From Fistulifera solaris (lineage: Eukaryota), in assembly GCA_030295235.1 (NCBI GenBank), contig AP026157.1, forward strand, positions 310,001 to 374,000: a stretch of 64,000 nt of DNA, given 5' to 3'. The position numbers and the translations under genes are program-made. A model generated the notes under the pieces. That model was not told the DNA's origin. It searched no databases and worked only from the letters and a program-made list of their open reading frames with translations. Position 1 is the stretch's first letter. Each line of letters begins with the position of its first letter. Positions 1,345 through 25,306 of the stretch are shown piece by piece.

Positions 1345-3338
1345 ATGATTGTCAACATGCAATACCTCAAGGTGCCCCCCCTCGCTCTCGGTTGTGCCCT
1401 TCCGCGAACAGTTGCTGATCCTCGACCGTCGACAGTACTGCAGCTAGACCTATCATCTCCTGTTGGCCGTCCCCCTGATTGCCACAACACCATCTGTCTC
1501 TCTGTTCCCTCAGATGGAGACCCCAAAATCGTTATCGGAGCTCACTCGATGTTCGATTACATCTTCCAGTGCAATTTTGGGGACGCACGTTGTTCGTTGG
1601 GTACGGTCTACCAGATTGAGGGAACAGGTGTTTTGCTGGAGGTATCCCTGCTCTTTGGTCCTTCCAGTTCGACGGGTTCTATTGCTGTGTTTGAAGGTTG
1701 CCTTAGTGGTGCCAGCGCTACCGATGGATCCGATAGCACCCACAACGAAGGAATATTTCCTGACTGTGTCAGAGACGATTCTAACCAAGGCACTCGTTGG
1801 ATAGCAAAAAGGGTCATTTCTACTCAATCGTGGTATATGCGCGATTGGGTCCTTCTTCCAAGCCTTTCATTCTTCGCGTTAACACTGCAAAATCGTATCC
1901 AGTTTGCGACACAGAGGAAAAGAAAATGATTGCTCCCGTTGATCTGGGTACTGTGAACGCGACTTCTGTCTGCGAAGACTCTTCAGCGGTTGATATGGTG
2001 TCGGGCAGATTCTCGGCAACCGTCAATCATCATGATGCCAAATTATACAGAGACCTCCACGCTTGCTTCGCAATGTATCACGGTCAGCAAGATAGATTGC
2101 AGTCATCCTACGTTTCGATTGCAGAGCCCATCAATAGTCCTGCAAGGGTCTTCAAGATAACCGGTGACGGAGAAACTTATGTTGCTTATGCAACTCATTC
2201 CTCCGCTCCTGATCCATATACTATTCTAAGTGACTTCGTCAAGATGGCTCTTTTCACTGTCAGTGAATGTGAAGCCACACCACAATGTGTTCAGGGACAT
2301 GAGTACCGTAGGACTATCTCTTTCGAAACAACTGCTGGTGAGACCTACTACTTGGCAGTCTACAATGATGACGGCGACAGTTTGGAAACACTCGACTTGC
2401 AACTCTCTTTTTTGTCTAGTAAGGCTCCTTGCGAAGATGCAACCAATCTAGGAATAGTTGGCAGTTCAGGGCGAACAATTAGCGGCACAATGGATGGAGC
2501 TAATCTGTACAAGGGCTTAGAATACGGTTCTTTTTATGAGATTATTCGTGCGCGAGTTTTTGCCTTCGTTGCAGAGAAGGACGGTCCATTTATGGTCACT
2601 GTCAAGGGGTCTGTCACAACACCCTACAACTGCAGCAAGATTTGTTGGGGTTTGGTACGGGGAGAGTGTTTGCATTACACGTTGCTCCATGTAACGGCTG
2701 TGCCGAGCTGTGATGTCAAGGCCAAATTGAGGAATCCTGGCACTCCTTATTTTGCTACGTCAGGAGTTTCGTATGACGTTGTCGTCTTCTCAAATCATTT
2801 GTTCGCCTCCGAAGACTTCCAGCTAGCTATAGACTTTTTAGAAACCGCCGAAGTCTGTGGTAGCGAGCACGTTGTGAATATGGGATCTATTCCTGATGAA
2901 GGTACTGTATTCAGCGGAACCACAGAGTTCGCTCCTTTGTTTGTACTTCCCCAGTCGTGTCAGGTCCACAATAACTACGCTTCACCAGTGACGCGTGCAG
3001 CTAAATTCAGTCTAACAGGCGACGGAAATACCTATATGCTTATTATGGGCGCGTATTCCTCTCACTTCCAGATACTCGTGTTTCAAGGGAGCTGTGAGGA
3101 TTTGGAATGCATGCCCCAACCTGAAGCGAGCCGCGTCTTGTTGGATACCAAGGTGGGCGAGACCTACACGGTTTTAGTTAGCGACGGGACAAGCAACGGG
3201 GAATTCATTTTGCACGTCAACAAAAAGGCAGCCCTGGTAAGCGTCATTGCTGACTCGATGGAGACAGTCTTGCATCTGCTGGCCTTTATATGTTTGTTTG
3301 CCTCTGTGTTCGGTGGTCTTGCCCGCTATCGTATATAA
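1345..3338 (+). CDS. Family A paralog 1: Cys-rich repeat-domain surface protein, short form (about 4 domains plus C-terminal hydrophobic anchor)
   Basis: ORFs 1345-1929 and 1797-3338 join by a frameshift at the A-run near 1806 (GTRWIAK|KGHFYSIVVY, compare GARWHAKAGQLYTIVVY in paralog 2). Repeats read C.DA..LG...GT...(VF/FS)..GDG..Y...VF.GSC..L.C...GETY.I.V. Tail LLAFICLFASVFGG. Confidence 0.75.
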
Positions 3339-4005
3339 GCTTTACGGTTTCTATGATCCAGACGCTGTCGGTGACTCGATAAGCTTGGGAAGTTGGATCG
3401 CACGGCCATTTTGGATACACATTGAAAGCGGTGATAGCAACGGCGCGCTCGGTTGACTGTCTTTTCAGTGTAATAAGGTAATACGATGAAGCTATGTGTA
3501 ACTGGTTTGAACCTAGAAAACAAGCATTTCTCTTGAAGACCATGTGACACATACTATTGGGAAGGAGTGAGAGCAACAGATGAGATCAACTAATAGAGTC
3601 GAGAAAACCTTCTGAACTACCGACTGACAATGGCTCCTCTCATGCAGGATTTAACTGTTGACGGTTCCGTTGTATACCTCTTCAATTGGTATAGCTTGCT
3701 TCTCAAACGTCCCGGAACCGTGCAAGTGACGATCTTTTGACAAGAAAAAAATGATGCTTAAATCGCGTACTCTCTCTCTATAGAGTAGATCGCTACTACA
3801 ATGAGGATAATGAGGTGGACGTCAGTACCCGTACGTCTTCGGGAGTGAATGTACTGAAGCATACGGGGGACGCGCTGTGTTTTTTTACTCCGTGTTTCGT
3901 TTTTCCATTACTTTCTATTCATTTGAATTGATGATGATGAGAGTGTGATGATTGTTCTTTTTGATTACACAAAATGAAAAAGAATGAAATAATAAGTGCT
4001 TGAAA

Positions 4006-4115
4006 TTTTTGCGCCCAAGTACCATAATGACGCCCGACAGCCGGTAGGCATTATCGTTGAACTTCACATTCGAGGGACATCGAGCTCGCATTCGGAAGGA
4101 AACAGAAAAAATGAA
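4006..4115 (+). promoter_or_regulatory. Conserved upstream block of family A genes (copy before paralog 2)
   Basis: TTTTGCGCC.AA.GTACCA..TGACGCCCG...CTCGCATTCGGAAG.AAA recurs at 15241-15326 and 19164-19253, 200-350 bp before each ATG. Confidence 0.65.
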
Positions 4116-6463
4116 CCATTCATTATCATTCCATCAAGTTGTAGGCTCATCCGTGAATAATGCTACAATGGGAAGACACAACATTGGCAAATAAAGGTCA
4201 TTCTGCTTGCACAGCTTCTCATCCTTACAGAAAAAAATGGTCAAGAAACGCAACGCCCAATCATGGGCATTTTATTTTTTTACAAAGATTTGAGGAGCAG
4301 GAGTCGTCTCAGCTATTGGTTTCGCTTTTCTCAGTCCCTTTTATTCCGCATGCGCTCAATCCTGGTAATATTCCTGAACCTATACGGGGTCCTTTTCAAT
4401 AAGACGGCAGCCGACGGTGTCGCACTTCTCCCGCCGTCTCTCGGTGTTTCGGAAAAGGTTCCTCTTTCTCCTATTATGACAAAAGTAGGTTCTTTGTGCG
4501 AAAACAATATCAAGCTTTCTGTCCCTGTAAAGGGTAGCCCGACGATTGTTAGTGGAATCCATTCGAAGCTTTACTCCGTTTCGGATTGCTCTTCTTTGGA
4601 TCTTGGACAACCTCCGGCAACAGTCTATCAAATCGAAGGAACAGGTGCGATGCTCGAGATAACCATGTTCTCGGGTATGCTCGGCTCCTCGAGTGACCTT
4701 GCTGTTTTGGAAGATTGCTCGGAAGGGTATATTGCTGCATCCGATACGAAGGGCGGCACCGTCCCCCACTGCGTTCCAGGCCAGTATCACCAGGGTGCTC
4801 GCTGGCACGCCAAAGCGGGCCAACTATACACCATCGTTGTGTATTCCTACACAGATCTCTCTTCTAAGCATTTTATGTTTCGACTCAAAGCAGTGAAAGC
4901 AACCCCGATTTGCGGCGCCAGTATCCTTCCCATCGACTTGAGCACTCTCAACGCCACTTACAACTCCGTGCAGCGACTCGGCGGGCCCGAAGATAGCGTG
5001 ATGCCATCCGGACTTCCCTCGTGCGACTCCAAGCCACTGTCTTCTTCTGTTTTCTATAAGATTACTATAAGTCAGCCGAATGTGGCAGTATTGGTCCACG
5101 TGCAAGGTGGCGGTTCCCACGCAAGCGTCTATCGAGGTGATTGCGAGAACGGTTACTCGTGTCTTACTTCCGCCAACGTCGAGTACGGACTTCCCCCGAT
5201 TTATGATAATGGCGATGCGGAAAACGGAACTGATGGCGAAGTTTCCATTGAGGATGAAATCGCAGTTGTGGACCCTCAAGCTCGGCAGGGAAATATGCCA
5301 TTGCCTCGAATCGTGTACAACCTCCACTCGTTTCACAACGCCAAGGCAGAGACTTCTTATCTCATCGTGATCAGTTCGTGTTGTCATACGAATGTTGCCG
5401 ATTTTCGGCTGACGGTAAATTCCACTAATTACGGCAGTATTTGCGAGGATTCTGCAGCAATTGATTTGTCCTCCGGCTCCTTTTCCAATGCCGTCGACCT
5501 TTCCGGCGCAAAAGTATACAGAGATCTTTTGATGTGAACATCACCACCGTCTCCAACAAAGCACCTTGTGATGATGCGACTGACTTGGGATCAATGGGAA
5601 GTGCTGGACTAAACGTCAACGACACTTTGAACCGAGGTGGTTTCTACAGGGACTTGGACCTTTGCGGCGTAGTTGCTGGAATTTCTCGTCTTCGCGTTTT
5701 TTCGTTTATTGCAGAAGCAGATGGTCCAATGATGGCCACTGTCAAAGCAGAGTCAACGATGAAAGTGAACCCTCAATCTCCGTTACAGCATCTTGCGAGA
5801 CTAACGAGTGTGTTGCTGGCTTATCAACCCTTGATATCACATTGAAATCCCAGGCTGCGGTGTGGGACGCCAAAGTCGGGGCTCGTTATTACCTTTTGGT
5901 CAAAAGTCATGACTACACGATCACCGACGGAAACTTTCTTCTGACTGTACAAACCTTTCCGACAACGCCGCTTTGCGATCATAAAGATGTGGTTGACATA
6001 GGAACTATTCCCGACGAAGGCGTTAAATTCGACGGAAGCACAATATCTGAACTCTTGTTTTCTCTGCCAACATTATGTCAGATTTCAGACGGGCACTTGT
6101 CGTCAGCAATCCGTGGAATAGCCTTCACCTTTACAGGTGATGGAACTGCGCGCACGTTCTAAGTGTGGGCAGCGATATCGGCTTTAAGCCCCTAAGGTGA
6201 CTATATTCAAGGGGAGTTGTGATAGTCTTGAATGCCTCCCCACAGACTCACATACAGACAGCTTTTTGGTGGGGACCGAGCCGGGCGAAACGTATATAAT
6301 TTTGATTGGCGATTGCTGCACCTTGGGTATAGTCGACGGGACATTTACATTGCATGCCAAACGTGTCGTCACGGGCAACATGGCTGCAGATTTGACGGGG
6401 AAGATTGACTCTCTAGACAGTGTGAAAAAGATGTTGAATGGGTCAACTTCAACTGGTATTTTT

Positions 6464-6882
6464 TAACAATAGCTAGAAACGATTTGCACCTTTTCTGCTA
6501 TTGGTATCGCTCTCTGACGAGGGACGAGACACAGATGACAATCAAACGAACGATAAAGTAGGAGGCGACCCTACGCTTACGCGGCACCGGTAAACCTCCA
6601 GAAGGGAGCACTGCTTCAATCGGTCTACCTTGAGTTCCTCCACTACACGAGGGGGGAGAAACACAAGAGATGGTTATCGACGAGAGGCGAATAACAACAA
6701 CAACAAGACAGATCAAATTATGATTAGAAACGTTCGTTAATCTACTGCGTAAAACTGCGATTGCTCCCGAATCAAATCTGCTAAACGTGATAAATATGCA
6801 AATTGTGTCACAGCGTTGTCTTGAGGAAAAACCCAATGACCACGACCCAAATTCCAGTCGTGAGTGATCCAAACTATTGTTA
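6464..6882 (-). repeat. 3' LTR (419 bp), termini TAACAATAG...CTATTGTTA
   Basis: Direct repeat of 13155-13570. By eye it differs by about 4 substitutions and 3 nt of indels. Confidence 0.95.
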
Positions 6883-6894
6883 CTCCCCATTTTT
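6883..6894 (-). other. Polypurine tract (AAAAATGGGGAG on minus strand)
   Basis: Purine-rich run immediately 5' of the 3' LTR on the coding strand. Confidence 0.85.
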
Positions 6895-6985: not shown

Positions 6986-9900
6986 TCAAGCTTCCACCTT
7001 ATCGTCCTCTTCGCCGTCGCTAGGCTTGCCACCGACTAGAAACAACAGAGGACGAAGAATGAACTTCCACGTCTTGGCGTAAGACCAATGCTTGCTAAGA
7101 AGGTCAGCAGCATTCAATTCTCCCGGAATGTAGTGAAACTCAATCATACCTGACGCAATAGCCTCACGCTGCGATGATACGACAACATCGTGTGGCTAGA
7201 AGTTTAGAACCAGGAAGTGCCGAGCTATCAACAACCGACTTGTTGTCACCGAACAGATAACTCGTCTTCCGAACCGGAATCCCCAAATAACGCAACGTCA
7301 AAGCGCAGGTCCGTAATCTGCTCAACCGCAGTACGTGCCGCACTAAATTCACTCCCATAAGTAGCTGTTTCCACAGTAGCCTGTTTCTTCGAATACCATT
7401 CATACGGGCGTGTTGTTGATCATATGCAGAATTCCTGTAACCGACTTGCCTGTCAACATGTCATGATAGAGATTGGCATCCACGTATGTAGTAGTCAACA
7501 CAGGCTTTCCCAAAGACTCCGGTGCGTCATGTGGAATCATTTCCTCAGCACCAGCATAGACGGAATAATCCCAATCGTGGACAACTGCCGGCAACGTGCT
7601 GTAGTCAGGCTCCGAAACATCCACGCGAATAGCCGAATGACGGAACTTATACAGATATCCGTAGATGCGCTTGACACGATCCATGTGCCCAAAGCGTGGT
7701 TCCGAGCGAAACGATGACATCGACATGACAGCTGTAAAGATATCAATCCGACCAATCGTGACGAGCCACTGCAATGCACCAATGAGCGATTGATACGTCT
7801 TCGTCTTCTCATCATCAAGGAATTCTGAAGTGTCAAGCTCTGGATGATCATTTGGCTCTAACGGCGACTGGTAGTTCCGAGGCTTCTGACCGAAGACACG
7901 CTCATAATTGACGAACATCCGCTCCAGGTATTTTGTCGGCGAGTAGCTAAGAGTGTCCGTCGAGTCTTTGACGAAGTTCATCCCCAAATGAAAAAACACA
8001 GGCCCTGTTCCCTTCAATTTGAAACCGTACTTGTGCTTCAGTGCTTCGACAATCAGCATCGGTTGCTTCGATACGATGAGCAAATCGTCGACATAAACGG
8101 CAATGTACTCGTACAAGTCATCACAACGACGCATCCACACGTCTGGTTCCGACTTCGAAGGGAAGAAACCCATTTCACGGAGAACATCGGCAAGTCGTTC
8201 CGCCCAACGGTAATTACTCGAGCGCAAGCCATACAACGCTTTGACGATGACAAGAATGTGGTCTTTCAACTCACCGAACTCTGGACCGGCGATGATGTAC
8301 ACTTTCTCACGCGTCTTGGCTTCGAGATATGCATTACCGACATCGGTCGCATAAAGCTCTTGGTTAAGCTCTGCAACGAAGACAACGACGCGAATACCCT
8401 TGATGGTAACAACTCCGGCGTAAACACTATCTAACGGAATATCCGTCAAATGTCCGTCAGCAACAAGTCTCGCTTTGTGGCGACCGTCATGTTTCACGTC
8501 GTATACAAAGTGAACTCGAATTTTCTTGTAACCGTCGAGAGGCCGAACTTTATCCTTGTGTCCACAGTCACGGAACGTGGAGTACTCATGGAGCGAACCA
8601 GACTCCAAAGCGGTTGCGTCCATCCACTTGGTGTTTCCATTCCGTTCATCCAACAAGATGGCGTGGAGAAAGTTCCGCGGAATCTCATACCCATACTTGT
8701 ATCGTGGTGCTGTATTGTAGGAACGAAGCTTGGCTTGTTTGACGAGACGTTCAAATATTTTCTCCTTCTTCTTTGCCATCGCACGGAACCGACGCCAACC
8801 ATTGGCATGCAACAAATCATTGGCCTTGGCGTAAATTGCACATTCGACCGGTGCCTCCTTTGCAAATTGATCCAACGGCATCCAGGTCACCTCCCCATTC
8901 TCCCATGCAACCTTGACGTTGTACGGCGATCCTGCATACTCTTTGTTCTTATCAGTAAGCGGGCCTTGGTTATCCACAATCTTCCGGAATTTCCATGCAG
9001 TAGGATTCGCGATGTCACGGTTAATGTACTCCATGACCTCCCCATAGGTCAGCATCGCCTCAAATTGACCGTCGTTGATGGAACAACGATACTGGATGCG
9101 GTTGCGATTCTGCTCAAATTCGGCCGCAGCCTCAGCAATATCACCAGCGATGCCCAGGATCTTAGCTCGATACTTGAGTCCTTCGGGGTTCGGGATCGTA
9201 AAGGAACGACCAATCAGCTCGTCCGGGGTGAAAGATCGGAACATCGGCACGACTTGAACCATGCTCCCCATCCAGCTCACGGCGAGAAACCAGTTCGAGC
9301 TGACGGGCAGGAGGGGGTCCAATCTCCCCATCAATCGGGCGATGATCCGAGGTGGTGCTACAAGCGGATCGACCACGGCGGTTCGGGTCGGTCTCCGTTT
9401 CAGCCGAAGCCGGACAGCAGAACGGTGAATGATGCGTCGGCTCCCCATGGTCAGAATCTTGAACGTCATGGCGTTACCGACGTTCTTGGAGACTCCCACA
9501 AAGTAACCGACATCTTCACGAGACTGCGATGGAAACGAGTGTGCATCAACACGATAATACACTTTCTCAAAGAAGCGGAAGCGAATGAAAGGACTGATGT
9601 CGGGCGTGTTGCCATTCAAAACGCCGAAGTGGAACGTCCTTGAGCGCACGATTGTAATGCGTATGGTTAAGGATATCGGCGACATGCGACAAACATTCAA
9701 ACCATAAATCGTCCGGCGCACCCGATCTGTCCATGACAATGTCACAAATCCATTTTGACGTCTTGAATCTTCCGTTCAGCATAGTTCTGGTGCTGGTAAC
9801 TACCTTCACTCATCCAACTGCCAATAAAAAGAGTGTCGAGGATGTCCTGGACACGTTTGTTGACCACAGCTTTGGCTTGGTCGCTAAGGACGCGTGTTGG

Positions 9901-12900
9901 TGCACCGCGATCGCGAATGACGTCCGTCAGCACAGTAGCAAAGTGCGTTTGACTGTGAAGAGGATAGATATCGATCACACCGGAATCGACACCAACGAAG
10001 AGTTGGGCATGCTTCACACCGAGGCCAAAAGCTTTCGTGTTGGAAAAGATGGTATCCGTGGCGATCGCTTCCTTGCGACGTGCAACATTCATGGCAGGAT
10101 GCGGCGATTTGAAGAGCTTCTGCAACACTGGGGAGTTGTATTCACGCGCATACTGTGTGGTGCGAGCAAAGGTCTCCTTGATAACATCGAAACCAAGATA
10201 AGCAAGCATCGGACGGACCTTTTCGACGTCGACTGGTTTCATCCGAATGTCAAGAATCGGCGAACGTCGTGAGTCGGTGGATCTGTAGAAATTAAAGTAG
10301 TTTCATCAGATGGCGTTGATTCACCCGTTAAAGCCGGAATCCCTGGAGTCACGTTGTTGACTTGCGACGGCGGAGTGTTCTCTGGTGGCACAGAAGGTAC
10401 AATCTCGTTGTCAGCAACAGTAAGAGCTGCAAAAACGTCAACAATATCCTGAACCGGGTCGAAACGATCGAGATCTTCGAGCGGATCAAACGGAGGGACC
10501 GATTGCAACACATTAGTGACGACGCGAGCAATGGCAGTGGCGATGACGGAATCGTGGAGATGAGCGTCGATATAGCTACGGTACTCGCCGAATTCGTCGA
10601 AGAGATTCGCATCCGATGTGTCTTCCAGAGCAGGCGGAGGCGGTCCCTTCCATTCATCGTCATCCATCTTGTGATCGAGCACTGTCGGATCCCATTCCTT
10701 GTCGTCAGTGAGGAAGATGTGTGGCAGTTCATCCCATTCCTCGTCGGTGTATGGGCGAATGTCCAATCGACAGAGACCTCGCGTAACGATGAGTGGTAAA
10801 ACGTATCCGTCCTTGGTGAGGATCCGCTGCGTACCACCGACCTTTACAGATCGATCATCCACCTTTTGTCCATACTTCTCCAACTGTCCAGATGAATGGA
10901 TCGTGACACCGCGCCCGTGTAAGCGTACTTATGGAACACAGCAATCCGCTCGCGGACTTGGGTCTTGACAACTCCAGCAACCGTGGCAATCGGAACTCGG
11001 GGCATCTGGTGGTTATCTATGCCTTGGATGTCAACAAAACGATCCGGAACCGTTCGCATAAGGCGTACATCTTCACCACCTACACCACCATTCGCTCCAC
11101 GGTCAATGAGCGATAACTTGGTGTCCGAGATCACTCGATTGCTGACCGAGTAAACATGGGCCATGTTGACGCTAACTTGATCGAAGTTGACGCTTTTCTT
11201 TCCACTTGTATTCGTCTTGGGGCCTTGAATAGTTTTCTTCTCCAAAGTATTATGCAGGGACCCTGGATGCAACGAGTGCTTTTCGTTCTTGAAAGGATTC
11301 GACTTCGTTTGGTTGATTTCGACAGCTTGCGTTTTGTCGTCATCGTCATCTTCGGTGTACGACTCGTTACGAGAATGAACAAGCGCTGACAGCATCTGAC
11401 TGAGCGTGACGTCTCCCAGCGTGGCGTCACTCATGTTTGCTTGACGAGCAGTACCTGGATACTTTTCGCTACGCTTGGCAGGCGGTTGCTTCGAGGCGGA
11501 GTTGACACGATGCATGATCGTCGATTTTCCCGCATCGGAGAGCTTGTCCCAGACGATACGGTCTTCAGGCGACAATTTTGACCACTGTTCGCGAGTGAGC
11601 TTGGGGAAATAGCCTGTCTGTCCGCTAGCAAGATATGCTTCATACGTGTCCTCCCCACTCAACAATTCACCGTGTTCAAGTCTTCGATCGGGTCTCCAAA
11701 GATGTCGTGTGTAGACGTTAAGCTTTCCGCCCTTGCTCGTAGCACGGAACTGATCGTCGTGCTCTAAAGCGGCAACCATCAATGCTTCCATGTACTTCGT
11801 GACTGAGGTTGGTACCAGTACCAATCTTCATAATACCGGCACTGCTGCGAACATTCATCAGGCATGGGATACCTTTGATGAGATTCTGTGTGAGAGAGTT
11901 CTTCATCGCATTGGAAAGACGTTCTTCGTGTGGCACAAGGGAGTCGTGAACGACGAAGCTCACTTTGAAATTGAAGGAGGTAGAACTCGTAAGACATTCC
12001 TTTTCCATCCGTGAGCATTCGAACTCGCATGAGCTTGGCGAGTAAATCTTGAGCCGTTAAAGACGAGTTCGTGGAGTCGGTGTAATACTCGAGAACCTCG
12101 CGGAAAACTGCCTGTGCATCCTTGTCCTCAATGTGCTCGTTGAGAATCTGTCGACTCTTTGCGGTCTTGAGCGTGGTATCGAAAACTGCAAGCATGTACT
12201 TTTTCTGCAGTTTGAACAATTCTTCATCCTCCCTCGGTCAGCGGTACGTAGTCTGGATCTAGCACTTCCGAACAATCTTGATTATCAGCATGACGACGCT
12301 GGTCGAATCGTACCAGTCCAGCCATTGGTTTTGATGCTTCAAGACCATGAAAGCTGCTTCGTTCCGTTTTGCTTTCATGAAATTCTGCGCTTTCGTCGGA
12401 GTGTATGGGGCGTACGAGGTGTGCACTGACTTGGTCGGGAGAGGCAGGCGAAGGTATCACAAAGCCAGGATGCATCGGAAGAGACAGGAACGTCGTCTGG
12501 AACCGGGGCGGCTGTAATGTTCCTCCCACATTTCAAAAGTAACCGCATAGAAACTTGATTCCGTACGATAGTTCCGAGTGTTCAAAGATCGTACAAACTT
12601 GTGAAACTTGATGAGTGAGATGATAGCGCCATTCAATGGTTGAATTCGATTTCCCCTCTCATCCATGTACGAAAGTGCGTCGATATACTGTGGCTCGTTG
12701 TCGTACTTGAAGTGCATGCACGAATCCATCCCGTTTGCAACAAGTGCCTTGTAGATCGGCGAGTCTTTTGTAACTTTCCGTAAACATTCAACATGAGATG
12801 TTCAAAGGCGGTAAACTCTACATCGACTTCTTCCTTTTTCTCGACCTTCGTATCTTCGACTTCCTTCTCCCCTTTTTGCTCACTTTCGACTTGACTTTCG

Positions 12901-13047
12901 TCGTTCTTTTTCTTCACGTCTCTTTTCTTTGTCATCTTTGTCCTTTACTCGAAGTTCCGGTTCATTCTTCTCTTCTTCGGTGCTAGTCTTGTTGTCAGGA
13001 TCCGGATCAGGCGGAGGACGCTTCTTCTCAGCCTTGGGTTTAGCCAT
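6986..13047 (-). CDS. gag-pol: Gag-Pol polyprotein, broken into many ORFs by frameshifts
   Basis: Start MAKPKAEKK (ATG 13047); protease LIDRGANGG (~11090-11110); integrase ATDTIFS...VLSDQA...HQNYAERKIQ (9742-10242); RT KARLVADG, DVGNAYLEA, KALYGL, YVDDLL; RNase H YVDANLYHD...GKSVTG, FGDNKSVV, NAADLLSK; stop at 6986. Confidence 0.92.
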
Positions 13048-13140
13048 GTTGCGGTAACAACAAAAAGAACCGAAGGGTGCAACAAACAGTCGACAGAGAG
13101 CGATCTGATAGACAGACAAGCTCTAACGAGAGAATCGTTA

Positions 13141-13154
13141 TGCGACTGTTAATC
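13141..13154 (-). other. Primer-binding site complementary to the tRNA-Asn(GUU) anticodon arm
   Basis: Plus strand TGCGACTGTTAATC abuts the 5' LTR and reads as stem-CU-GUU-AA-stem (tRNA positions 27-40). No TGG-starting PBS is present. Confidence 0.75.
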
Positions 13155-13570
13155 TAACAATAGCTAGAAACGATTTGCACCTTTTCTGCTATTGGTATCG
13201 CTCTCTGACGAGGGACGAGACACAGATGACAATCAAACGAACGATAAAGTAGGAGCGACCCTACGCTTACGCGGCACCGGTAAACCTCCAGAAGGGAGCA
13301 GTGCTTCAATTGGTCTACCTTGAGTTCCTCCACTACACGAGGGGGGAGAAACACAAGAGATGGTTATTGACGAGACGAATAACAACAACAACAAGACAGA
13401 TCAAATTATGATTAGAAACGTTCGTTAATCTACTGCGTAAAACTGCGATTGCTCCCGAATCAAATCTGCAAAACGTGATAAATATGCAAATTGTGTCACA
13501 GCGTTGTCTTGAGGAAAAACCCAATGACCACGACCCAAATTCCAGTCGTGAGTGATCCAAACTATTGTTA
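13155..13570 (-). repeat. 5' LTR (416 bp)
   Basis: Direct repeat of 6464-6882 with the same 9-bp terminal inverted repeat. Confidence 0.95.
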
Positions 13571-15240
13571 TTTTTTATCCTAACTTGCCGATGTGCGACT
13601 TTTCGGTCGATTCTCCTGCTGCTGTCTATCAGCTGGATACTGGCGCTGGTTTTTTCTCCGCTCAAGTTTCCGGCTTTGGATTCAATGTTCATTTATCTGT
13701 TGTGAAAGCAAACGGCTTGGGAGGATTTGAATGTTACGGAACACCCAGTGATCGACAAATTTCGTGGGAGGGAGAAGAAAGACTATATCTTGTCGTTTAT
13801 GGTTGTTGTGACATGAATGCAGTTGGAGACTTTTCCCTGCGCTTAACTAAACATCCAAGCTCAAACAAGCCATGCAATGGCGTACGATCTTGGCCACGTT
13901 CCTGATGATGGGTTGAGGCACGCCGGGACATTTGCCGGTTGGCAGTTTCCTTACCCTCAAAATGTCACCCCTTGCGATTATGGAGGTCACGTCGCTTCCT
14001 CGGCTGGCCGGTCGAAGGTATTTCGAGTGATTGGGAACGGAAAAACATTGGCGGCTTTCATGTTTGTACCTCAATCGACTTTGAGTCAGGGAATTCAGGT
14101 CTCCTTAACCGTTGTGAAAGGAATTTGTCGTACTATGGAGTGCATCAAAGGTGCTTACTCGACAGTTGACCCCTTTTGGTCGGTCACCTGGCCGTCTGTA
14201 GCAGGGGAGACTTATGATATTTTGATATCCACGTGCTGCGCGGAAGTCGAAGACGAATTCATACTCATGGTGTACGAGGGATGGTAGGGAGTTGTTTGGC
14301 AGTAATGAGACAGCAGTCACGGGACTCGGAAATAAGGGTGGCGTCGATGCGGATTCTTCAAGCAGCAATTGAGAAAGGGCATGTCATTCTTGTTGAATGC
14401 CGTGGTATTGGTAGCATTGTTTTGCTGTTACTAATGGAAAGTCGTTCATCAAGGTAAAGTATTGTCGCTTAGATAGGCAAAGAGCAATAATTCATGAGAT
14501 TTTGTAGTTGCTGAATCTGTGCATAGGATACTAGCTTCTTTTCCTTCGAATTGTCAGGTCAAGATAGCACATATAGATCTACGTTTTTCAATTTCCAAAT
14601 GGTGTGACGCACTCAACTACAAATCACGAAACCTAACACCAAACTAGTCCAGGACATAGAGTTGTTGACCAACCTTCAGAATCCACCCAGTAATCCAACC
14701 CCAAAAAACCTAACAAACGTCAATTTGACCACAATCGGCACCAAGTACAACCTAATAGTCAATTCGGCCGTCGGACCTGGCCACATCACCCAGTCCGAAC
14801 AAGATGACAGCCCCCTTGCTCACCACACCAGTGACATGGTAATCTATGTATAGGAAGTCAGCCTATCACAGATTGCACTACGGTTCAGTCATAGGGATAG
14901 GACGTAAGAACGATATATTCTCAGTTTTTTTATATTTATTTGTAGCCATAGCTATCTCTCTAAAGAGTTAAGTCGGCCTGTACCGGTACGCCATGAGGAA
15001 TGTTACTAATTATATACCAGTATCAGGTAAAATAGCATCATCGTTGCAATTCTTTCACCCACTGCGCAGCAGAGGGGCGACGGGCGACGGCGACGATGAG
15101 GCATTCTAAAAAAATATTATTATTTCTCCTTTGTTATTTCCTTGAATGAAAGTGGAGATGTATTATGTACTATTGTATTTACAAAGCATGAGTGACGAAA
15201 TATCTGGTTCTATACCAGAATCATACGATGGAGCTTCACG

Positions 15241-15326
15241 GTTTTGCGCCAAATAAGTACCAGTGACGCCCGGCGGCTGTAAATCTTACATGAAAATCTC
15301 GCATTCGGAAGCAAACAGAAAAATGA
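15241..15326 (+). promoter_or_regulatory. Conserved upstream block of family A genes (before paralog 3)
   Basis: gttttgcgccaaataagtaccagtgacgcccg...aaaatctcgcattcggaagcaaacagaaaaatgaa, matching the other two copies. Confidence 0.65.
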
Positions 15327-15536
15327 AAAGCCATTCATCCCAAGTCAATCAAGTCGTTGTTCATTCGTGATTGCGCCATTATTTTAATAAAAAGTTGCAT
15401 ATGCATACTTCCACAATCCTTGGAGCTTGGAGCGGCTCATTTTTTACGAACGATACGCCCAAACGGATCTATCACATTATTCATGAGTTGAGCTGGAGCC
15501 TCAAGCCTTTTTTCGCAGTAATTTTTGCATTCAACA

Positions 15537-18500
15537 ATGCGTCGTTTGCAGGCGACTTTCGTTGTACTTTGTGATGCGCTTCCCACGATGGCAGCCGACG
15601 GTCTTATTCCACCACCGCCTCCCAGTGCACCGGATTCGTTTGCTCCTCCCCTTTCGGAATTTGGTTCCTTGTGCGAAGACACCATTGTGCTTACGGTTCC
15701 TGCGGAAGACAGCACCGCGGTTGTGACTGGAGCTCATGCGAAGCTTTTTTCTTTTCTGGATTGCGCATTTCTCGACACAGGCTCCGCCCCAGCGACGGTG
15801 TACCAGATAGAAGGAACGGGTGCCATGCTAGATGTATTCTTGTTTGGAGATCAATACGGATCAAGTCAAGTTGCTGTTTTTGAAGGATGTCCCAGTCAAC
15901 CCGGCCGTAATGGCGCCGTGAACGTCAGTGGTGGGAAATACCCGAATTGTGTTGCCGGCCAGTATATCCAGGGCGCTCGCTGGCAAACACAAGCGGGTCA
16001 ACTGTACACGATCGTTGTGTATTCGTATGCGTCTCTTTCTTCAACTTCTTTCATTCTTCAAATTGAATCCGTTAAAGCTAGTCCAATTTGTGGCACGGAA
16101 AGCATTTCTCTTATAAATGTCGGGACACTGAACACTATTTCGGTGCAACTGCTGGGCGGATCGGAAGATAGCGTGACAATCACGGATCTTCCTCCGTGTG
16201 ATTATCAGACACGATCGTCTTTTGTTCTCTATGAATTTACTGTTTTGCAGTCGAATGTGATAATCTCGGCATCAGTCGAAGGCGTTGATTCCGTTGTCAC
16301 GGTCTATCAGGGCAACTGCGAAAGTAGCTACACGTGTTTACCGCATGCTGGAAGTGGTGACGCCTCCGTCAGCGATAAAAGCTCTGTAGTCAATAGGAAC
16401 AGCGAAGAAGTAACGGACGGGGAGGGTGCATCCGGGATGGAGTCGCAAGTCCGACTGGAAAGTATCGCGATGCCTCGGGCCAACTACAACGTTCACTCGT
16501 TTCACAATGAGATGGCAGGGGCTACCTACCTTGTTGCAGTCAGTTCGTGTTGTGGCAATAATGTTGAGGACTTTCGATTGACGTTGAATGTTACCGAATA
16601 CGGTAACGTATGCGAGACTCTGTTGAGATCAATTTGTCGTCAAACGAAACTTCGGCAATCGTCAATCTCTCTAAGGGGAAAGTGTACCAAGACCTCTCTT
16701 CTTGTCACGCAAACGGTTATCTCGATTCCAGTGGGCAACAGGCTTCTATGATGATCAGTAGTCCAGTGGCGTTCTACAAATTGATCGGTGACGGAAATAA
16801 TTATATCGCATACATTGCGCCTTCGGACCCAAATAAGTCCTTCGGTCAAGTACGGACATCACTTTATACTACCACTACGTGCAACAAGCCGCCAGAGTGC
16901 TTGCGAGGCGACAATCAAAACAACCAACTTTTAATCTCGACGGTGATTGGTGAGACGTACTATTTGGCATCTTACAGCGACCATACCGAAGATCAGGGTT
17001 CCTATGTTCTCAAGATGAGATCTTTATCCAGCAAAACTCCTTGTGAAGATGCAACCTATCTCGGATCCGTCGGCAATACGGGACTAACGGTCAACGGAAC
17101 CTTGTCAGAGGTTGCGTTCTACAGCAACTTCAGTATTTGCAACGTGTATGCCGAAACCACTCGTTTTCGCGTTTTCTTGTTCATTGCAGAAAAGGACGGA
17201 CCGATGGTTGCCACTGCCACAAAAGTCGATCCAAATATCAACTTCTACCCTCTTTTGACAGTTGTAACAAGTTGTGAGAGTGGCGAATGCATCGCTGGCT
17301 CGTCGAACTTTGATATCGACTTGCTGACTCCCGCTCTTTTCTGGAACGCCGAGGCGGGTGTAAAGTATTACGTTGTGGTCAGTAGTCTTGAGTTAACGTT
17401 CGACTCTGGAGAGTTTATTTTGACTGTGGAGCCCTTGACAGCGACGACGATTTGTGGCGAAAATGTAGTTGACATGGGAATCATTCCCAGGGAAGGCGCT
17501 ATGTTCAACGGGAGTACGATATCAGGTCCATTATTTGCTATCCCGGCATCGTGCCAAGACGATAAGACTATCGCTATGGTCAGCCGTTCAACAACCTTCA
17601 CTTTACGAGGCGACGGCAATGTTTACCTTTTAAGCGTGAGTGACGCTTTTGGATTTAGTCCTCAAGCTACTGTTTTTGACGGAAGCTGCGAGAATCTGAG
17701 ATGCATCCCTACTGATGCATATGTAAGCAGTTTCTTGGTGGATACCGCGTTAGATGAGACTTACACAATTGTGATCGGAGATTGCTGCGATCCTGTAGGA
17801 CTAGGAGGGACATTCAGACTTCACGCGAAAAAAAGTCAATAAGGGCAGTTTGACTTCCGACGCAATGGCTATGAATTTACCGTGGGGCACTGAAACCAAA
17901 CGAGTTACGGGATCGACTTCTTCTGGCTCATTTTATCCGGGTTTGCCTTTGTGTCACATCTCGGTCGATTCTCCCGCTACCGTCTATAAGCTGGACTTTG
18001 GCGACGGTTACTTTTCCGCTCAAGTTTCAGGTTTTAGTTTTGATGCCCAGCTTTCGCTCCTTAAAGCAAATGACTTAAGTGGTTTCGAGTGCTACGGAAC
18101 ACACGGACATCGACATGTCTTTTGGGAGGTAGGAGAGGCACAAAGTCTGTATCTTGTTGTTCACGGTTGCTGTGACATGAATGCCGTCGGTGACTTCTCC
18201 CTGCAGTTGCGCAAATTAAGCATATCAGGTGAACCATGCAATGACGTGCATGATCTTGGCAACGTCCCCAAAGACGGTTTGGTTTATGTCGGAACATCGA
18301 ATGACTGGTTTTTTGTTGCTAATGATGGTTCTGAAAGTGAGCCGCTTTGTGAATACGAAAACCAGCGCGCTTTCTCGCCTGAAAGGTCAAAGCTTTTTAC
18401 CGTCGATGGTAGTGGAAAGACGCTGGCGGCTTCTGCGTTCGTTTCTCATACGACTGCGATCAGGATCTCTCTAACCGTTGTGAAGAGCTTTTGTGGTTCG

Positions 18501-18812
18501 GTGGAATGCATCGAAGGTGCTTACTTGACGGTCGACCCCTTTGAGTCGATCACCTGGCCGTCTGTACCAGGAGAAACGTATGATATTTTCGTAACCATGT
18601 CGGTGTCGGAGACCGAAGACGAATTCATACTCATGGTATACGAGGACGGCACAGAATTGTTTGGTAGTAATAGGACAGCAGTCACGGGGCTCGGAAATAA
18701 CACAATGAACGACACCAGCCACGGCGCCGATTCTTCGAGCAGCAAATTGAGAAAGGCCATATCATTCTTGTTGAACGCCGGGGTATTGGTAGTAATGTTT
18801 TGCTGTTACTAA
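15537..18812 (+). CDS. Family A paralog 3: about 1090-aa secreted protein with 7 Cys-containing beta-sandwich-like repeats and a GPI-like tail
   Basis: ORFs 15525-16751, 16610-17842 and 17850-18812 are collinear with paralog 4, with frameshifts near 16615 and in the A-run near 17830. Start MRRLQATFVVLCDALPTMAADG. End GADSSSSKLRKAISFLLNAGVLVVMFCCY. Confidence 0.85.
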
Positions 18813-19163
18813 TGGGAATCCGTTCGTCAAGATAGGTTATTCTTGTAGTCGGTATAATTCTGTGCACTTAGGCTACTAGATTTTCCTTTTCCTCGCCGAC
18901 TTCAGGTGCACGTAGCCAACAATAACAGAGAAAGTCAGTTAGTACCGGTACGCCATGCGAACGGTTGCTACTTAAGGAAAATTAAGCTCACACCTCGTTT
19001 TTCGTTCTATCATGTCTCACGTAATACACTACTGGTACGTATGCTTCCTAATAAACTATTATTTCACCTCTTTCCTTTTTTATAAAATAAAAGCGGAGGC
19101 GATTATTGTTGTTTTCACAAAGCAAGAGTGCTGAATGCGCTGATCATACGATGGTGCTGGACG

Positions 19164-19253
19164 TTTTCGCGCCAAAAGTACCACAGTGACGCCCGCCGGC
19201 TCGTATAACCCTTATCTGAAAATCTCGCATTCGGAAGCAAATAATAAATGAAT
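19164..19253 (+). promoter_or_regulatory. Conserved upstream block of family A genes (before paralog 4), including TTTTCGCGCCAAAA
   Basis: Same block as at 4006 and 15241. Confidence 0.65.
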
Positions 19254-19413
19254 CCATTTATTTTAAAGTGAATCAAGTCGTTGATATTCATTCGTGATTG
19301 CGCTTTTACGGCAAGCAGGGCGCCTCAACTTCCACAACCTTCACACGTTCTTCGAGGGCTCATTCTTTTGAGAAAGATACGCCGAAAACGGCAATCACGA
19401 CAGTTTAGGGGAG

Positions 19414-22400
19414 ATGCGCCGCTTCCGGGCGATATTCTCTGTGATCTGCGGGATCCTTTCCGAGACGGCAGCTGACGGTAAAGATCTAACACCAAAGCCT
19501 CTCGATCTTTCGGATGGGCTTTCTCCTCCCCCTGACGGAAAGTGGATCGTTGTGCGAAGAAGCCTTACAACTCTCGGTTCCTGCGGATGGGAGCCCCCAG
19601 GTGATTAGGGGGGCGCATGCCAAGCTGTTTTCTTTTTTCGGATTGCGCTTTTAATGACATAAAAGCCGTCTCAGCCACGGTGTATCAAATCGAAGGAAGT
19701 GGTACGATGTTGGATGTATTTTTGTTTCGAGATGAACTCGGATCGAATAAAGTTGCTGTTATGGAAGGATGCCCCAGTAAAGCTGGCAACAATTTCACCG
19801 GCGCCCCAAAAGATAGCAGCGGAGGCATGTCCTCGAATTGTGTTGTAGAGCAGTACGCTCAAGGCGCTCGCTGGCAAACAAAAGCAGGTCAACTCTACAC
19901 TATCATTATTTACTCCCCCGCTTCGATTTCTTCGACAGCTTACATTCTTCGCATCGAATCCATTCAAGCCAGTCCGGTTTGTGGCACAATTGCAAACTCT
20001 TTCATTCAATTGGATGCGCTAAACACAGGAAACTCATTGCAGTTACTGGGCGGATTGGAAGACAGCGTGAGTGGAGTCACGGACCTTCCTCCATGCGACT
20101 ATCAGACACGATCGTCGTCCGTTCTCTACCAGATTACTGTCGGTCTGCAGCCAAATGCTGTAATATCCGTCTTCGTCGAAGGTGATGACTCCGTTGTCAC
20201 GGTATATGAAGGCAACTGCGACAGTGGCTACTCGTGTTTGCCTTTGTCAGATGTCATAACTGATGACACCGCGATCGATTATAAAGGTTCTAAAATGATT
20301 TCGGAAAACAAAGATGGAAAAAGGGAGGGTACTGGCGCCCTCGCATTAGAGCCTCAGGTCAGGCGAGGAGGTATTGCGATCCCTCGGGTCACCTACAGCG
20401 GTCAGTCTTTCCACCATGAAAAGGCAGGGACAACATATCTTATTGAAGTAAGCTCCTGCTGTGGGGCTAGTATTGGCGACTTTCGTTTGACCTTGAATGC
20501 CACCAGTTATGGGAATGTTTGCGAGGACTCTGTAGAAATCGATTTGTTGTCAGGCAAATCATCAGTAACCGTCAACCTGTCCGAGGCAAAAGTATACAGG
20601 AATTTAGATTCATGCCATGCAAGCGGCGATTACGATGTCGATGGGCATCGGACTTCAAACGTTGGTTCGACAGCGTTCATTAGTAGTCCAGCGGTGATCT
20701 TCAAAATTACCGGCGACGGAAACAGTTATATAGCCTATATTGCTCCTTTGCACCCAAATTCGTCCATCGAGCAAATCAGGACGACTCTCCTAATGTCAAG
20801 TTATTGTGACAGAACGCTCCAATGTTTGCAGGGCGATAATTTCAGTAATTTGCTTTTGATCGAAACGCGGGTCAATGAGACGTACTACTTGGCAGTCTAC
20901 AGCGAGCAAACTGAAGATAAGGAATCTTACGATATGATTATTAGTCCCCTATCCAGGAATACGCCATGTCAAGATGCCATCAATCTAGAATCCGTCGGTG
21001 ATGGGATAACGGTTAATGGAACTTTGGCAGGAGCTGCTCTGTACAACAAATTGAGCATGTGTAACGTTTATGGCCAATTTTCTCGATTTCGCGTCTACTC
21101 ATTCGTTGCAGACAAAGACGGTCCAATGGTGGCCACCGCCAAGGTCGACCCAAATCTGAATTTCTACCCTTTTCTGACGGTTGTTACAAGCTGCGTGAAC
21201 GGCGAGTGTATCGCTGGACTTTCACATGTGGAGATCGAGGTGTCTCAACCGGCTGTTGTTTGGTATGCTGAGTCCGGTTCCACGTATTACGTTGCCGTCA
21301 GGAGGCTTGATTACGTAACTTACAACGGAAATTTCCAGTTGACAGTGGAGCCCTTGACAACGACGGCAATTTGCGATTACGAAAATGTGGTTGACATGGG
21401 TACTATTCCGGATGAAGGCGCTACATTTGACGGAAGCACAATATCTGGTCCCCTGTTTTCTGTCCCAGATTCGTGCCAAAAGGAACTAGCTGACACTTTT
21501 CCAACCAGTCGTGCCGCAACCTTCACCTTAAAAGGCGACGGCAATGCTTACATGCTAAGCGTCAGCGACGCTTCCGGCATTAGCCCTCAGGTCATTGTCT
21601 TTCAGGGAAGTTGTGATAATCTTAGTTGCATCCCAACAGACTTAAATGCAGACAGTTTTTGGTGGGAACAAAATTGGGCGAGACGTACACGATTGTTATC
21701 GGAGATTGCTGCACATCCGTACACATAGGAGGGACATTCAAACTTCATGCAAAGAAGATTATTTCGGGCAATTTTACTGCCGACGCGAAGGCATTGAGTG
21801 TGCCCGTAGGTACTGAGACCCAAAGAGTGTTAGACTCAACTTCATTGGGCCGCCTTTATCCCGGCTTGCCGTTATGTCACTTTTCGGTCGATTCTCCCGC
21901 AACTGTCTATAAGATAGAATCCAGCGTAGGTTTGTTCTCTGCTCAAGTTACCGGATTTGGTTTTGATGCTCAGCTTTCTCTTTTCAAAGAAGATGCCACG
22001 GGGGTTTTAGATTGCTACGGAACACATGACAATCGAGAAATCTCGTGGGAAGTAAAGAAGGCGCAAGATCTTTACCTTGTGGTTTACGGTTGTTGTGGCA
22101 TGAGTGTAGCTGGCGACTTTTCGCTGCAGTTGAGCAGGATGAAAATAAGAGGTGAACCGTGCAATGATGTGCATGATCTTGGCACCGTATCCGAGGATGG
22201 TTTGAATTATGTCGGGACATTAAGTGAATTGTCAATCGTGGCTACTGATGCTTTTGAAAGTGAATTGATTTGTGAATACGCAAGACAACATACTTTTCCT
22301 CTGGTGAGGTCCAAGATTTTCAAGGTCAATGGAAACGGGAAAATACTGGCGGCTTCCGCGCTCGTTTCTCAAACGACTTCAATGCAGATCTCCCACACCG

Positions 22401-22696
22401 TTGTCAAGAGCTTCTGCGGCTCGGCCGAATGCATTGAGGGAGCTTACTTCAGCGCAAGCCCCTTTGGATTGATCATCTGGCCGTCTGTAGCAGGAGAGAC
22501 ATACGATATTGTCGTATCCACGTCGCTGTCGGAAACCGATGACGAATTTATACTCATGGTGTACGAAGAAGGCTCGGAATTGTTTCAGAGCAACTCCACC
22601 AAAGAAATCGACCACGACGACTTAAACTCTTCTAGTAACAAGCGGATGAAGGGCATGTGGATGGCTTTAGTGGGGGCCATGTGTTGGTTTTTGTGA
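19414..22696 (+). CDS. Family A paralog 4: full-length 7-repeat secreted, probably GPI-anchored protein
   Basis: Start MRRFRAIFSVICGILSETAADG. ORFs 19617-21728 and 21626-22696 join at the T-run near 21657. Tail NSSSNKRMKGMWMALVGAMCWFL. Confidence 0.85.
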
Positions 22697-22924
22697 TGAA
22701 AATCAGTCGCCACGATGCTACTAATGAAAAAGTCGGTCGTCACCATAAGAAAAAATTGTCAAAATTGCTTGCACTCTAGCGAAATTGCATCTTCTGTTAC
22801 CATTACAAGCAGCATTATCCTCAAAACTAATGCAGAGTGTTCTACTGTGTCTGCTATGTTTGTTATTGTTTTCAATCACAAAACGCGGTCGTAGTACTTA
22901 GCAGTTACTATACGTTACTACTTT

Positions 22925-22980
22925 GTATAGGACAAAGTGTATACACCATTCTTCATCAACAGGACTGGACTTTAGTCACG
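22925..22980 (+). promoter_or_regulatory. Copy of the dispersed bipartite motif, about 125 bp upstream of EMC3
   Basis: GTATAG gacaa AGTGT, 22-nt spacer, GACTGGACTTTAGTCACG. This is the reverse complement of the copies at 28535, 28766, 46288, 51233 and in the tandem array. Confidence 0.5.
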
Positions 22981-23103
22981 GGTCTGAAATAATTGGCTGC
23001 GCGACGCATTTCTGTTTTGTTGATGAAAAGCTAATTATACACATTCATTTGCTTCTTTGATTCCGAATCTTCTTCATTTAACAATTAGCACACAAACTAA
23101 AAA

Positions 23104-24023
23104 ATGACAACAACACTTTTATTAGACCCCGACATTCGCGATTGGGTCGTGTTGCCGCTATTTGTCATCATGGTAGCGGCGGGCTTGTTGCGGCACAGTG
23201 TTAGTGTCTTGTTGCAAGGTTCGCCCGTCAAGGCACAGGCCATTTCCGCACGGAGTTCTTCTTTGCTAAGACAAACGATGAAATTACAGACGGGAGCGGC
23301 GCATTATATGACAACGTGGCGTTGGCAGTGTCGCAAAGAACACGCGATCCAAACCTTGCGACAGGAAGCGGACTGGGCCGAAGCAGAACAAACGAAGAAA
23401 TCGGAAAGCGGTGACGCGACGGATAACGCCGATGATCCCATGAGTGCCATGATGAACAATCCTATGAGTATGATGAAAGGGAATATGGTCTTTATGGTTC
23501 AAAATATGGTCATGATGCAAGGAATTCAACACTTTTTCAGTGGCTTTATTCTTCTCAAAGTGCCCTTTCCGCTCACGGCCGGATTCAAGAGTATGTTTCA
23601 ACGCGGTCTCGGAGCGGAATTGCCCGATCTGGAACCCAGTTACGTCAGTTCCGTCAGTTGGTACTTTTTGGTCATGTACGGATTGCGTTCCTTTTGCAAC
23701 TCGTCATTGGCGATCCACCCCTCGAAGTGCGTGAACAGTCCTCCAAGACGATGCAGTACGGATACTTGCCTCCGGGACGGACGGGACAAGATGGAGCCGC
23801 CGTCGCGCAACAATTACGACAAGAAGCAGAAAATCTGGAAGTCTTTGTGCAGCCCCGCAAATCGGAATTTGATTCGGTCGAAAAACGTGTCTTGGGTGTT
23901 CAGCGATATCCCAAAAAATCGAAGTTGACCGGTCCTGACAGTCACGATAGCTTATTTACGAATGCAAATACTGGTAATACAAAAGGCAAAGGAGGCAAAA
24001 GAAGAGTAATTGAGCCGTTATAA
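23104..24023 (+). CDS. EMC3: ER membrane protein complex subunit 3 (DUF106 family)
   Basis: LLLDPDIRDWVVLP, MMKGNM, FFSGF..LKVPFPLT..FKSM.QRG, YVSSVSWYFL..YGLR. Frameshift at the T-run near 23693 continues into ORF 23658-24023 (...EAENLE). Confidence 0.92.
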
Positions 24024-24103: not shown

Positions 24104-25306
24104 TCAATCTACCTTTTCATAAACTAGTATATTCTTTCGATTCGAACTCTTGTTGGCTTGGTTGCCGCCGTCCTCGTCTCCGAGAAGCCGCAGAAAATAA
24201 GAAGCAACTCGTCCCGCCATTGCCAGGTAATATTCCCAAAACGATAGCTGCAACAGTAGATCCTCTTCCTTCTCTTGCCGCTCTTCGTTATGCTGTTGTT
24301 CTCTCTTATGAACAGTCTCTTGGGAACGACGAGGAGCTCGCAAAGTAGAATATGCTTTCCGTGAAGGTACGGATGGTGTATTAAAAATACCCACCCCCCT
24401 GTTTGGACCGTCTGACTTGTTGGAATGCTTCTTCATCATCACTTGTTGTAAAGACTCTTTTTGTTGCCGTTGATTTTGTTTCGCTTCTTTTGCTTTTTCT
24501 TGCACATTCCGCAATTCGGTTTGAATCACTTTTCGTTCGAATTCATTCGATACCAACTTTAACGCACGTTCATAATCGGTCTTGGCTGCCTGGTACTCAC
24601 CACGATATTTCCGAGCCTTGCCTCGCCGAAAGTACAGTTTCGAAAGTTGTTCTGAATGGGTCACGTCTACTTGTTGCGTTGGTTGTTGTTGCTCCGCGAA
24701 GTATTCCAAAGCCATAGTACAAACGGTTTCCGCTTTTCGATACCACTGCAATTGCAAAGCGGATTGAGCTAAATTGTTCATAATTTTGCAGTAAAGTAGC
24801 AGTCGTTGTTGCTGATCCTCTGCGTCGTTGTCTTCAGAATTTCGTTGCTGTGAATCCTGGTTTTCATTTTCAACAATATCGGAGGAACGATGATGATGGA
24901 TACCAATTACCGGCAAGCACGTCAAATACACTTGAATAGCATTCTCATATTGCTGTTCCTGATACAATTGATTGCCATAACAGCGTTGCACTTCGGCCCA
25001 TTCGTATTGTTCAGCCTTTGTTTTTAAGGAATTTAACCACTGCGTGGCTTGTTGCAAGCGCGTTTGACAATCGGCGGCCGCTTGTTCGGCCGGAGAGGCT
25101 TTGCGGGTAGAACCATCCGGTAAACGGCGTTGCAATTCGAAATACGATCCTCCGCCATGTAATTCGTGCAAGGTACGATTGATGGAATGCAAAACATCCG
25201 TCGTGGTCACAAAGGATTCCTCGGGGGGACGTGCATAGGTTGTAGTAGGCGATGGATTGTTGCTTTTGTCAGAGATCTTTTCATTACTCCTCGTTTCAGC
25301 GGGCAT
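24104..25306 (-). CDS. TPR-domain protein (three-TPR co-chaperone-like clamp)
   Basis: 400-aa ORF with GNQLYQEQQYENAIQVY, NNLAQSALQLQWYRKAETVCTMAL and KLYFRRGKARKYRGEYQAAKTDYERAL. Confidence 0.85.
   Translation of the reverse strand: MPAETRSNEKISDKSNNPSPTTTYARPPEESFVTTTDVLHSINRTLHELHGGGSYFELQRRLPDGSTRKASPAEQAAADCQTRLQQATQWLNSLKTKAEQYEWAEVQRCYGNQLYQEQQYENAIQVYLTCLPVIGIHHHRSSDIVENENQDSQQRNSEDNDAEDQQQRLLLYCKIMNNLAQSALQLQWYRKAETVCTMALEYFAEQQQPTQQVDVTHSEQLSKLYFRRGKARKYRGEYQAAKTDYERALKLVSNEFERKVIQTELRNVQEKAKEAKQNQRQQKESLQQVMMKKHSNKSDGPNRGVGIFNTPSVPSRKAYSTLRAPRRSQETVHKREQQHNEERQEKEEDLLLQLSFWEYYLAMAGRVASYFLRLLGDEDGGNQANKSSNRKNILVYEKVD

Follow-up and report, generated by a model that had tools for sequence, protein, structure and literature searches.

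A Ty1/copia retrotransposon on the minus strand of a 64-kb stretch of diatom DNA (the window, here the whole 64,000 nt analysed) carries 14 nt directly beside its 5′ LTR that very probably act as the minus-strand primer binding site (PBS), with priming by a half-molecule of tRNA-Asn cut after C40. Four observations are laid out below as the basis: how the element is built, the exact match of the site to real tRNA-Asn arms, the invariance of an 11-nt core among related elements, and the lack of a site for a tRNA 3′-CCA end or for self-priming.

Results

Overall structure of the element

The element is a Ty1/copia LTR retrotransposon (Pseudoviridae), recognised by its LTR pair, target site duplication (TSD), polypurine tract and RVT_2 domain. 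It lies on the minus strand, which is the coding strand, and consists of the following parts:

6459..6463: target site duplication, left copy, TTTTT on the plus strand
6464..6882, minus strand: 3′ LTR, 419 nt (direct-repeat search and alignment)
6883..6894, minus strand: polypurine tract AAAAATGGGGAG, directly upstream of the 3′ LTR (read from the LTR alignment)
7164..13047, minus strand: internal coding region in at least eight frames (ORF list, Pfam, relatives)
7400-9775, minus strand: RT/RNase H, with the RVT_2 match at about 7913-8533
9742-10928, minus strand: integrase region, upstream of RT (weak rve match and homologues)
about 10900-11150, minus strand: protease motif
11779-13047, minus strand: gag-like part (ORF list)
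13048..13140, minus strand: untranslated leader, from the PBS to the first gag-like ATG (sequence and ORF list)
13141..13154, minus strand: very probable primer binding site, GATTAACAGTCGCA (tRNA-Asn identity and family conservation)
13155..13570, minus strand: 5′ LTR, 416 nt, termini TAACA...TGTTA, direct repeat of 6464-6882
13571..13575: target site duplication, right copy, TTTTT on the plus strand

The two LTRs are in direct orientation and bear the terminal inverted repeats TAACAATAG/CTATTGTTA. Their blocks are 98-100% identical in the direct-repeat search, and alignment, which fixes both ends, shows four substitutions and two small indels between the copies. The LTR termini read TAACA...TGTTA (TA...TA) and not the usual TG...CA, at 13155-13159 and 13566-13570 in the 5′ LTR and at 6464-6468 and 6878-6882 in the 3′ LTR. 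The target duplication measures 5 bp and is present at both outer ends. At ~17930 and ~21853 the target exists in uninterrupted paralogous form, and alignment of these sites across the junction confirms both ends of the element.

In the interior, the first ATG of the gag-like frame occupies 13047-13045 of the minus strand. Pfam recognises RVT_2 with E=1.7e-27, and a weak rve match (E=0.0014, below the cut-off) is positioned upstream of RT; homologues of the integrase region are likewise located upstream of RT, giving the copia domain order. The many frame breaks of the window copy reflect either decay or assembly indel errors; this copy is probably decayed and no longer autonomous.

The element splits one unit of a tandem array of ~3.9-4.4 kb paralogous units (window 4263-6463 and 13571-23600). 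These units correspond to repeat families D2-D5, D8 and D9, share 69-80% identity, and contain long ORFs (e.g. 15537-16751, 16610-17842 and 19617-21728) with no Pfam match.

The diatom origin proposed in the earlier note on this DNA is borne out by the ORF at 26503-27753, whose product matches, at 100% identity, a protein listed by NCBI under the diatom Fistulifera solaris. The same product is 82% identical to a second F. solaris protein with a paired locus name (H/L), a pairing that fits two diverged subgenomes in this species. Between this Nar1/Fe-hydrogenase-like ORF and a TPR-repeat ORF (24104-25306) sits an array of ~230-nt tandem units, in three copies of 60-95% identity, at 25501-26306.

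The site adjacent to the 5′ LTR

Positions 13141-13154 read TGCGACTGTTAATC on the plus strand and GATTAACAGTCGCA on the coding strand. Alignment places the LTR end at 13155, so that the 14-mer begins at the first base past the 5′ LTR with zero spacer, as the earlier note had described. The 11 nt nearest the LTR (13144-13154) form the invariant core and are complementary to tRNA-Asn(GUU) positions 30-40, and the remaining three (13141-13143) are complementary to positions 27-29.

The site opens with GAT and is not complementary to a tRNA 3′-CCA end. A canonical PBS is not supported for this element, as no TGG occurs in the first 30 nt after the LTR and no better match to a tRNA 3′ end was found; nor is Tf1-like self-priming, as no stretch of 7 nt or more in the 5′ LTR is an exact complement of the site.

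In the 64-kb window the exact 14-mer is found a single time, and no second match with up to two mismatches is present on either strand. Since 38 of 100 shuffles also gave at least one match at this level, the count in the window is by itself not significant. This favours a chance resemblance, with an unrecognised canonical or self-priming site in use, a reading whose probability we regard as close to nil. Against it, TGG and a complement in the LTR are both missing, the 14-mer is identical to positions 27-40 of tRNA-Asn, and 33 non-redundant elements, diverged in other respects, keep the 11 nt unchanged; the last two points place the 14-mer beyond chance.

In the window copy, eight nucleotides of the PBS, AACAGTCG (13143-13150), form an inverted repeat with CGACTGTT in the leader (13084-13091). 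The leader complement starts 49 nt downstream of the PBS end, with a shuffle P of about 0.02.

Identity with the tRNA-Asn anticodon arm

An exact scan of IMG/VR with the 14-mer gave at least 120 loci; in the 120 listed, tRNA genes were called by ARAGORN. In 65 of these 120 the 14-mer is embedded in a tRNA-Asn(GTT) gene. Altogether at least 66 tRNA-Asn genes of at least 46 distinct sequences carry it, on phage-like and giant-virus contigs. By ARAGORN numbering it spans positions 27-40 with GTT at 34-36, in agreement with the arm and anticodon assigned to it in the earlier note. In tRNA-Asn genes of 73 nt (anticodon at 34), the GC(A/G) that follows the 14-mer closes the stem, and the stretch matching the core, positions 30-40, reads GACUGUUAAUC. 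Judged by these genes, the 14-mer corresponds to a genuine anticodon arm of tRNA-Asn(GUU).

No tRNA gene was found in the 64-kb window or in 79 related metagenome loci. Five small IMG/VR contigs from different samples (L035, L050, L061, L073 and L097) share a near-identical tRNA-Asn gene with conserved flanks. Two of them, L035 and L061, were considered as retroelements and rejected: they have no RVT_2 and are rated as virus fragments 2-4% complete. In the literature searched, the 14-mer, its complement and its RNA form were not found, and the 11-mer occurs in seven papers, all unrelated by title.

A candidate tRNA-Asn gene of the host

Of the words sampled from window 12000-16000, sequencing run X1 contains a fraction of 0.81. 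Its contigs were matched, at 80% likeness, to the tRNA-Asn gene of a giant-virus locus (L069). A 414-nt contig with a depth of 26, other X1 pieces having depths of 15-18, covers L069 294-336 without gaps and with 4 differing letters in 43. This segment comprises the 3′ half of the D arm, the anticodon arm and the beginning of the T arm. On its 5′ side, the contig supplies the pairing acceptor strand and the D stem, and on its 3′ side the rest of the T stem, the matching acceptor strand, the discriminator and TTTTT. By this fold, the contig carries a well-formed tRNA gene of nuclear type at nuclear-like depth.

The letters of the 3′ T-stem strand require that three of the four differences lie in the 5′ T-stem strand, leaving at most one for the anticodon-arm region. 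The host arm therefore agrees with the 14-mer in at least 13 of 14 positions, a bound set by stem pairing and not by a letter-by-letter read-out. Overall, 39/43 letters match. By the stem-pairing bound, a host arm that departs from the site at several positions, which the earlier note had seen as a danger to its proposal, is not expected for this X1 contig.

A second X1 contig, of depth 220 and with AT-rich flanks, covers L069 280-322 with 5 differing letters in 43 (38/43) and is probably the plastid tRNA-Asn gene (trnN). Three further X1 contigs that align to L069 70-109 over 35-38 nt, outside the tRNA, were taken as chance matches. Runs X2 and X3 gave no contigs matching the L069 tRNA-Asn reference.

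The probable plastid gene matches the same reference as the nuclear-type one, and the core is common to very different tRNA-Asn genes (at least 46 sequences), among which sequence alone cannot discriminate. Both points allow for a primer that is another RNA with the same 11 nt, an organellar tRNA-Asn or the transcript of a tRNA-derived repeat in place of the cytosolic tRNA. We consider such a primer highly unlikely. The host run contains a tRNA gene at nuclear depth whose arm is within one difference of the site, and LTR retrotransposons are reverse-transcribed within particles in the cytoplasm, with cytosolic tRNAs.

Conservation of the site in related elements

Relatives of the RT region are abundant in metagenomes (2194 matches, the best ~60% identical). 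A metagenome scan with a protease/integrase alignment of the clade gave 565 pattern matches, of which 367 were confirmed and 79 loci kept; these are 36-63% identical to the window's protein. Searches with the single protein found no related locus in viral_contigs and one distant locus in genome_contigs (L001, 33% identity), which was left out of the comparison.

Of the 79 loci, 35 contain the 11-nt core GATTAACAGTC exactly, once and in sense orientation; they represent 34 distinct sites as L184 and L185 overlap. The core precedes the protein match by 1859-4824 nt, or follows it by 4150-5468 nt in permuted contigs, and all 35 sites begin with GATTAAC. By calculation, ~0.09 exact 11-mers are expected by chance on one strand of 385,560 nt. 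No variant of the core with one substitution is found in any of the 79 loci; in L144, the core has a 1-nt insertion and follows a TGTCA end.

The conservation profile comprises 33 non-redundant sites, the window and 32 others. Agreement is 100% in the 11 core columns and at the last LTR base, and 76-88% at the four LTR bases before the last, mostly as in TGTCA. All columns beyond the core and the LTR tip drop to 27-67%. Each core site is preceded by a short LTR-end-like motif (TGTCA in 18/33 and TGTTA in 4/33 non-redundant elements), with true adjacency to an LTR end demonstrated only for the window and for L169, where the LTR repeat runs to 135 and the core follows from 136.

The three nucleotides after the core vary among the 33 elements: GCA, TTG and ACA occur seven times each, TCG four times, GCG and GTA twice each, and four triplets once. 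Loci with the same triplet tend to have common flanks. Such variation would fit an adaptation to positions 27-29 of each host's tRNA, or a functional site of only 11 nt. Conservation of the site in the family, as the earlier note expected it, thus holds for the 11-nt core, kept in 35/79 loci with no substitution, and fails for the last three letters of the 14-mer.

Among the 43 loci without the core, 26 do not extend far enough on either side to include the site, and 11 start downstream of it, according to nucleotide similarity to core-bearing relatives. The six others (L133, L134, L142, L162, L193 and L198) have no clear 5′ junction. In L134 and L142, similarity to relatives places the site within the contig, yet no such core is there. 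Some relatives may use another primer or may be rearranged.

A conserved 11-mer could also be a leader signal, for packaging, for dimerisation or for an intact tRNA-Asn to dock through its anticodon loop, with a different primer in use. The constrained part is short (11 nt), the evidence consists of sequence complementarity and conservation alone, and the window's leader offers its 8-nt complement of the site, all of which would suit such a signal. We nevertheless judge it quite improbable. The core is at the PBS position, after an LTR-end-like motif, in 36 cases, with adjacency demonstrated for the window and L169; the window element has no alternative PBS, neither TGG nor a self-priming complement. 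The 8-nt inverted repeat was rejected as a family trait, the mean longest complement being 4.8 in the family versus 4.5 in shuffles. In copia, Ty5, Bianca, FunCo1 and rust Copia elements, a site laid out in this way is accepted in the literature as the PBS.

Two of the metagenome loci carry single unbroken gag-pol frames, L162 at 143-6082 (1980 aa) and L186 at 228-5876 (1883 aa), and are possibly active elements. L162 has TGTCA at 35-39, followed by a different sequence without the Asn core. Several contigs of the clade run in the permuted order pol-LTR-PBS-gag, and identical overlaps of 91-127 nt are shared by the two ends of L125, L127, L138, L146, L159, L178, L191 and others. End overlaps and permuted order are to be expected when an assembler collapses elements of many copies, or when the elements exist in circular or tandem form.

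A model for half-tRNA priming

Priming by a cut tRNA-Asn, as first proposed, is the explanation best supported by anatomy, tRNA identity and conservation. The PBS would pair with the anticodon stem-loop of cytosolic tRNA-Asn(GUU), 11 nt of it with positions 30-40, and in the window copy three extra nucleotides would pair with positions 27-29. The first PBS nucleotide would face C40, a base in the 3′ strand of the anticodon stem. For the LTR bases upstream of the PBS (TGTTA here, mostly TGTCA in the family), pairing with tRNA positions 41-43 is impossible. Beyond C40 the 3′ tail of an intact tRNA would be unpaired, so that it would be unable to prime, and the absence of pairing at 41-43 implies that the primer would have to be the 5′ part of tRNA-Asn ending at C40. 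The reverse transcriptase would then extend C40 and copy U5-R, yielding minus-strand strong-stop DNA. The cut after C40, the identity of the nuclease and the cytosolic rather than organellar source of the tRNA-Asn are what we infer in this model.

Given the family-wide variation of the last three nucleotides, the constrained site may be only 11 nt long. In eukaryotic tRNAs, G26 often bears a dimethyl modification at which reverse transcriptases stop; such a block would fit a copyable stretch of exactly 27-40. The anticodon loop of tRNA-Asn normally carries modified bases, usually at position 37 and at the wobble base. These modifications could possibly hinder pairing or copying, a difficulty common to the iMet cases.

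Discussion

The half-tRNA of Drosophila copia ends at position 39. Drosophila copia and yeast Ty5 use initiator tRNA-Met, whereas the window element matches tRNA-Asn(GUU), with predicted pairing that ends at C40. Review text describes copia as primed by a half-tRNA and Ty5 as starting from an end made by internal cleavage, attributed to RNase P (PMC5371799). Both are classed as Hemivirus (Pseudoviridae) and, like the window element, belong to the Ty1/copia superfamily and have a PBS that abuts the 5′ LTR without TGG (PMC5371799, PMC10886601). Their pairing with an anticodon stem-loop and their primer 3′ end inside the tRNA, so that a cut tRNA is needed, are predicted for the window element as well. 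The likeness of the window element to Hemivirus concerns the priming layout.

Non-initiator tRNAs have been described in this role. Anticodon-loop PBSs for Tyr, Ile, Asp and iMet are reported in rust-fungus Copia and Helenus elements (Kojima 2024, PMC10886601), whose TSDs of 5 bp equal that of the window element. Together with the plant, FunCo1 and Candida cases below, the anticodon-arm primers in print other than iMet include Ile, Lys, Arg, Tyr and Asp. In the literature searched, priming by a tRNA-Asn-GTT anticodon arm has been published once, for fungal Helenus elements (PMC10886601). That case concerns a fungal host and a non-autonomous lineage mobilised by Copia, and section 3.6 of the paper names no autonomous Asn-primed Copia; its likeness to the window element is one of tRNA identity. 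Here, the Asn site is kept in a clade of autonomous type from a diatom and aquatic metagenomes. The novelty that the earlier note claimed for the primer among hemivirus-type elements was, on these published cases, overstated.

In plants, half-molecule tRNA-Met is used by Osser, Bryco and part of Gymco-II, and tRNA-Ile by Bianca (Neumann 2019, PMC6317226). As is proposed for the window's clade, these lineages have a lineage-wide half-tRNA PBS as a stable trait; they differ in the tRNA and in their green-plant hosts. In the accessible portion of that survey, tRNA-Asn appears only as a 3′-end primer, in 2% of elements. The FunCo1 PBS, ATTAAGAGTCT, matches an internal region of tRNA-Lys (Donnart 2017) and deviates by a single base from the part of the core that it overlaps, opposite the first base of the anticodon. 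For Candida, a review names PBSs that correspond to internal stretches of tRNA-Arg(UCU) and tRNA-iMet. The FunCo1 and Candida Copia elements thus resemble the window element in matching an internal region of a non-initiator tRNA and differ from it in the tRNAs and the fungal hosts.

The CoDi lineages of diatoms (Maumus 2009, PMC2806351) are copia-type elements of a diatom host, as is the window element, the likeness being one of host and type alone. The main text of that paper does not mention tRNA, and its only 'PBS' is a buffer; descriptions of CoDi or other diatom PBSs were not found in the literature searched.

The priming mechanism is therefore already known, and the primer identity is rare, not unprecedented. 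A large diatom-associated Copia clade with an unchanged tRNA-Asn anticodon-arm site appears to be unreported in the literature searched. Half-tRNA priming by tRNA-Asn would add stramenopile Copia elements to the animal, fungal and plant cases of this mechanism, with an 11-nt site kept without substitution across a deeply diverged clade.

It can further be imagined, although we hold it to be unlikely, that the diatom Copia clade depends on a tRNA-Asn 5′ fragment ending at C40, that the supply of this fragment gates retrotransposition, and that the post-core triplet tracks positions 27-29 of the host tRNA. If so, cleavage of tRNA-Asn, for example under nitrogen or other stress, would link stress to the stress-activated diatom retrotransposons of Maumus 2009.

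In conclusion, the core offers a simple annotation marker for the elements of this clade, a defined target for testing how the primer fragment arises, and a concrete handle on whether tRNA cleavage limits transposition in diatoms.
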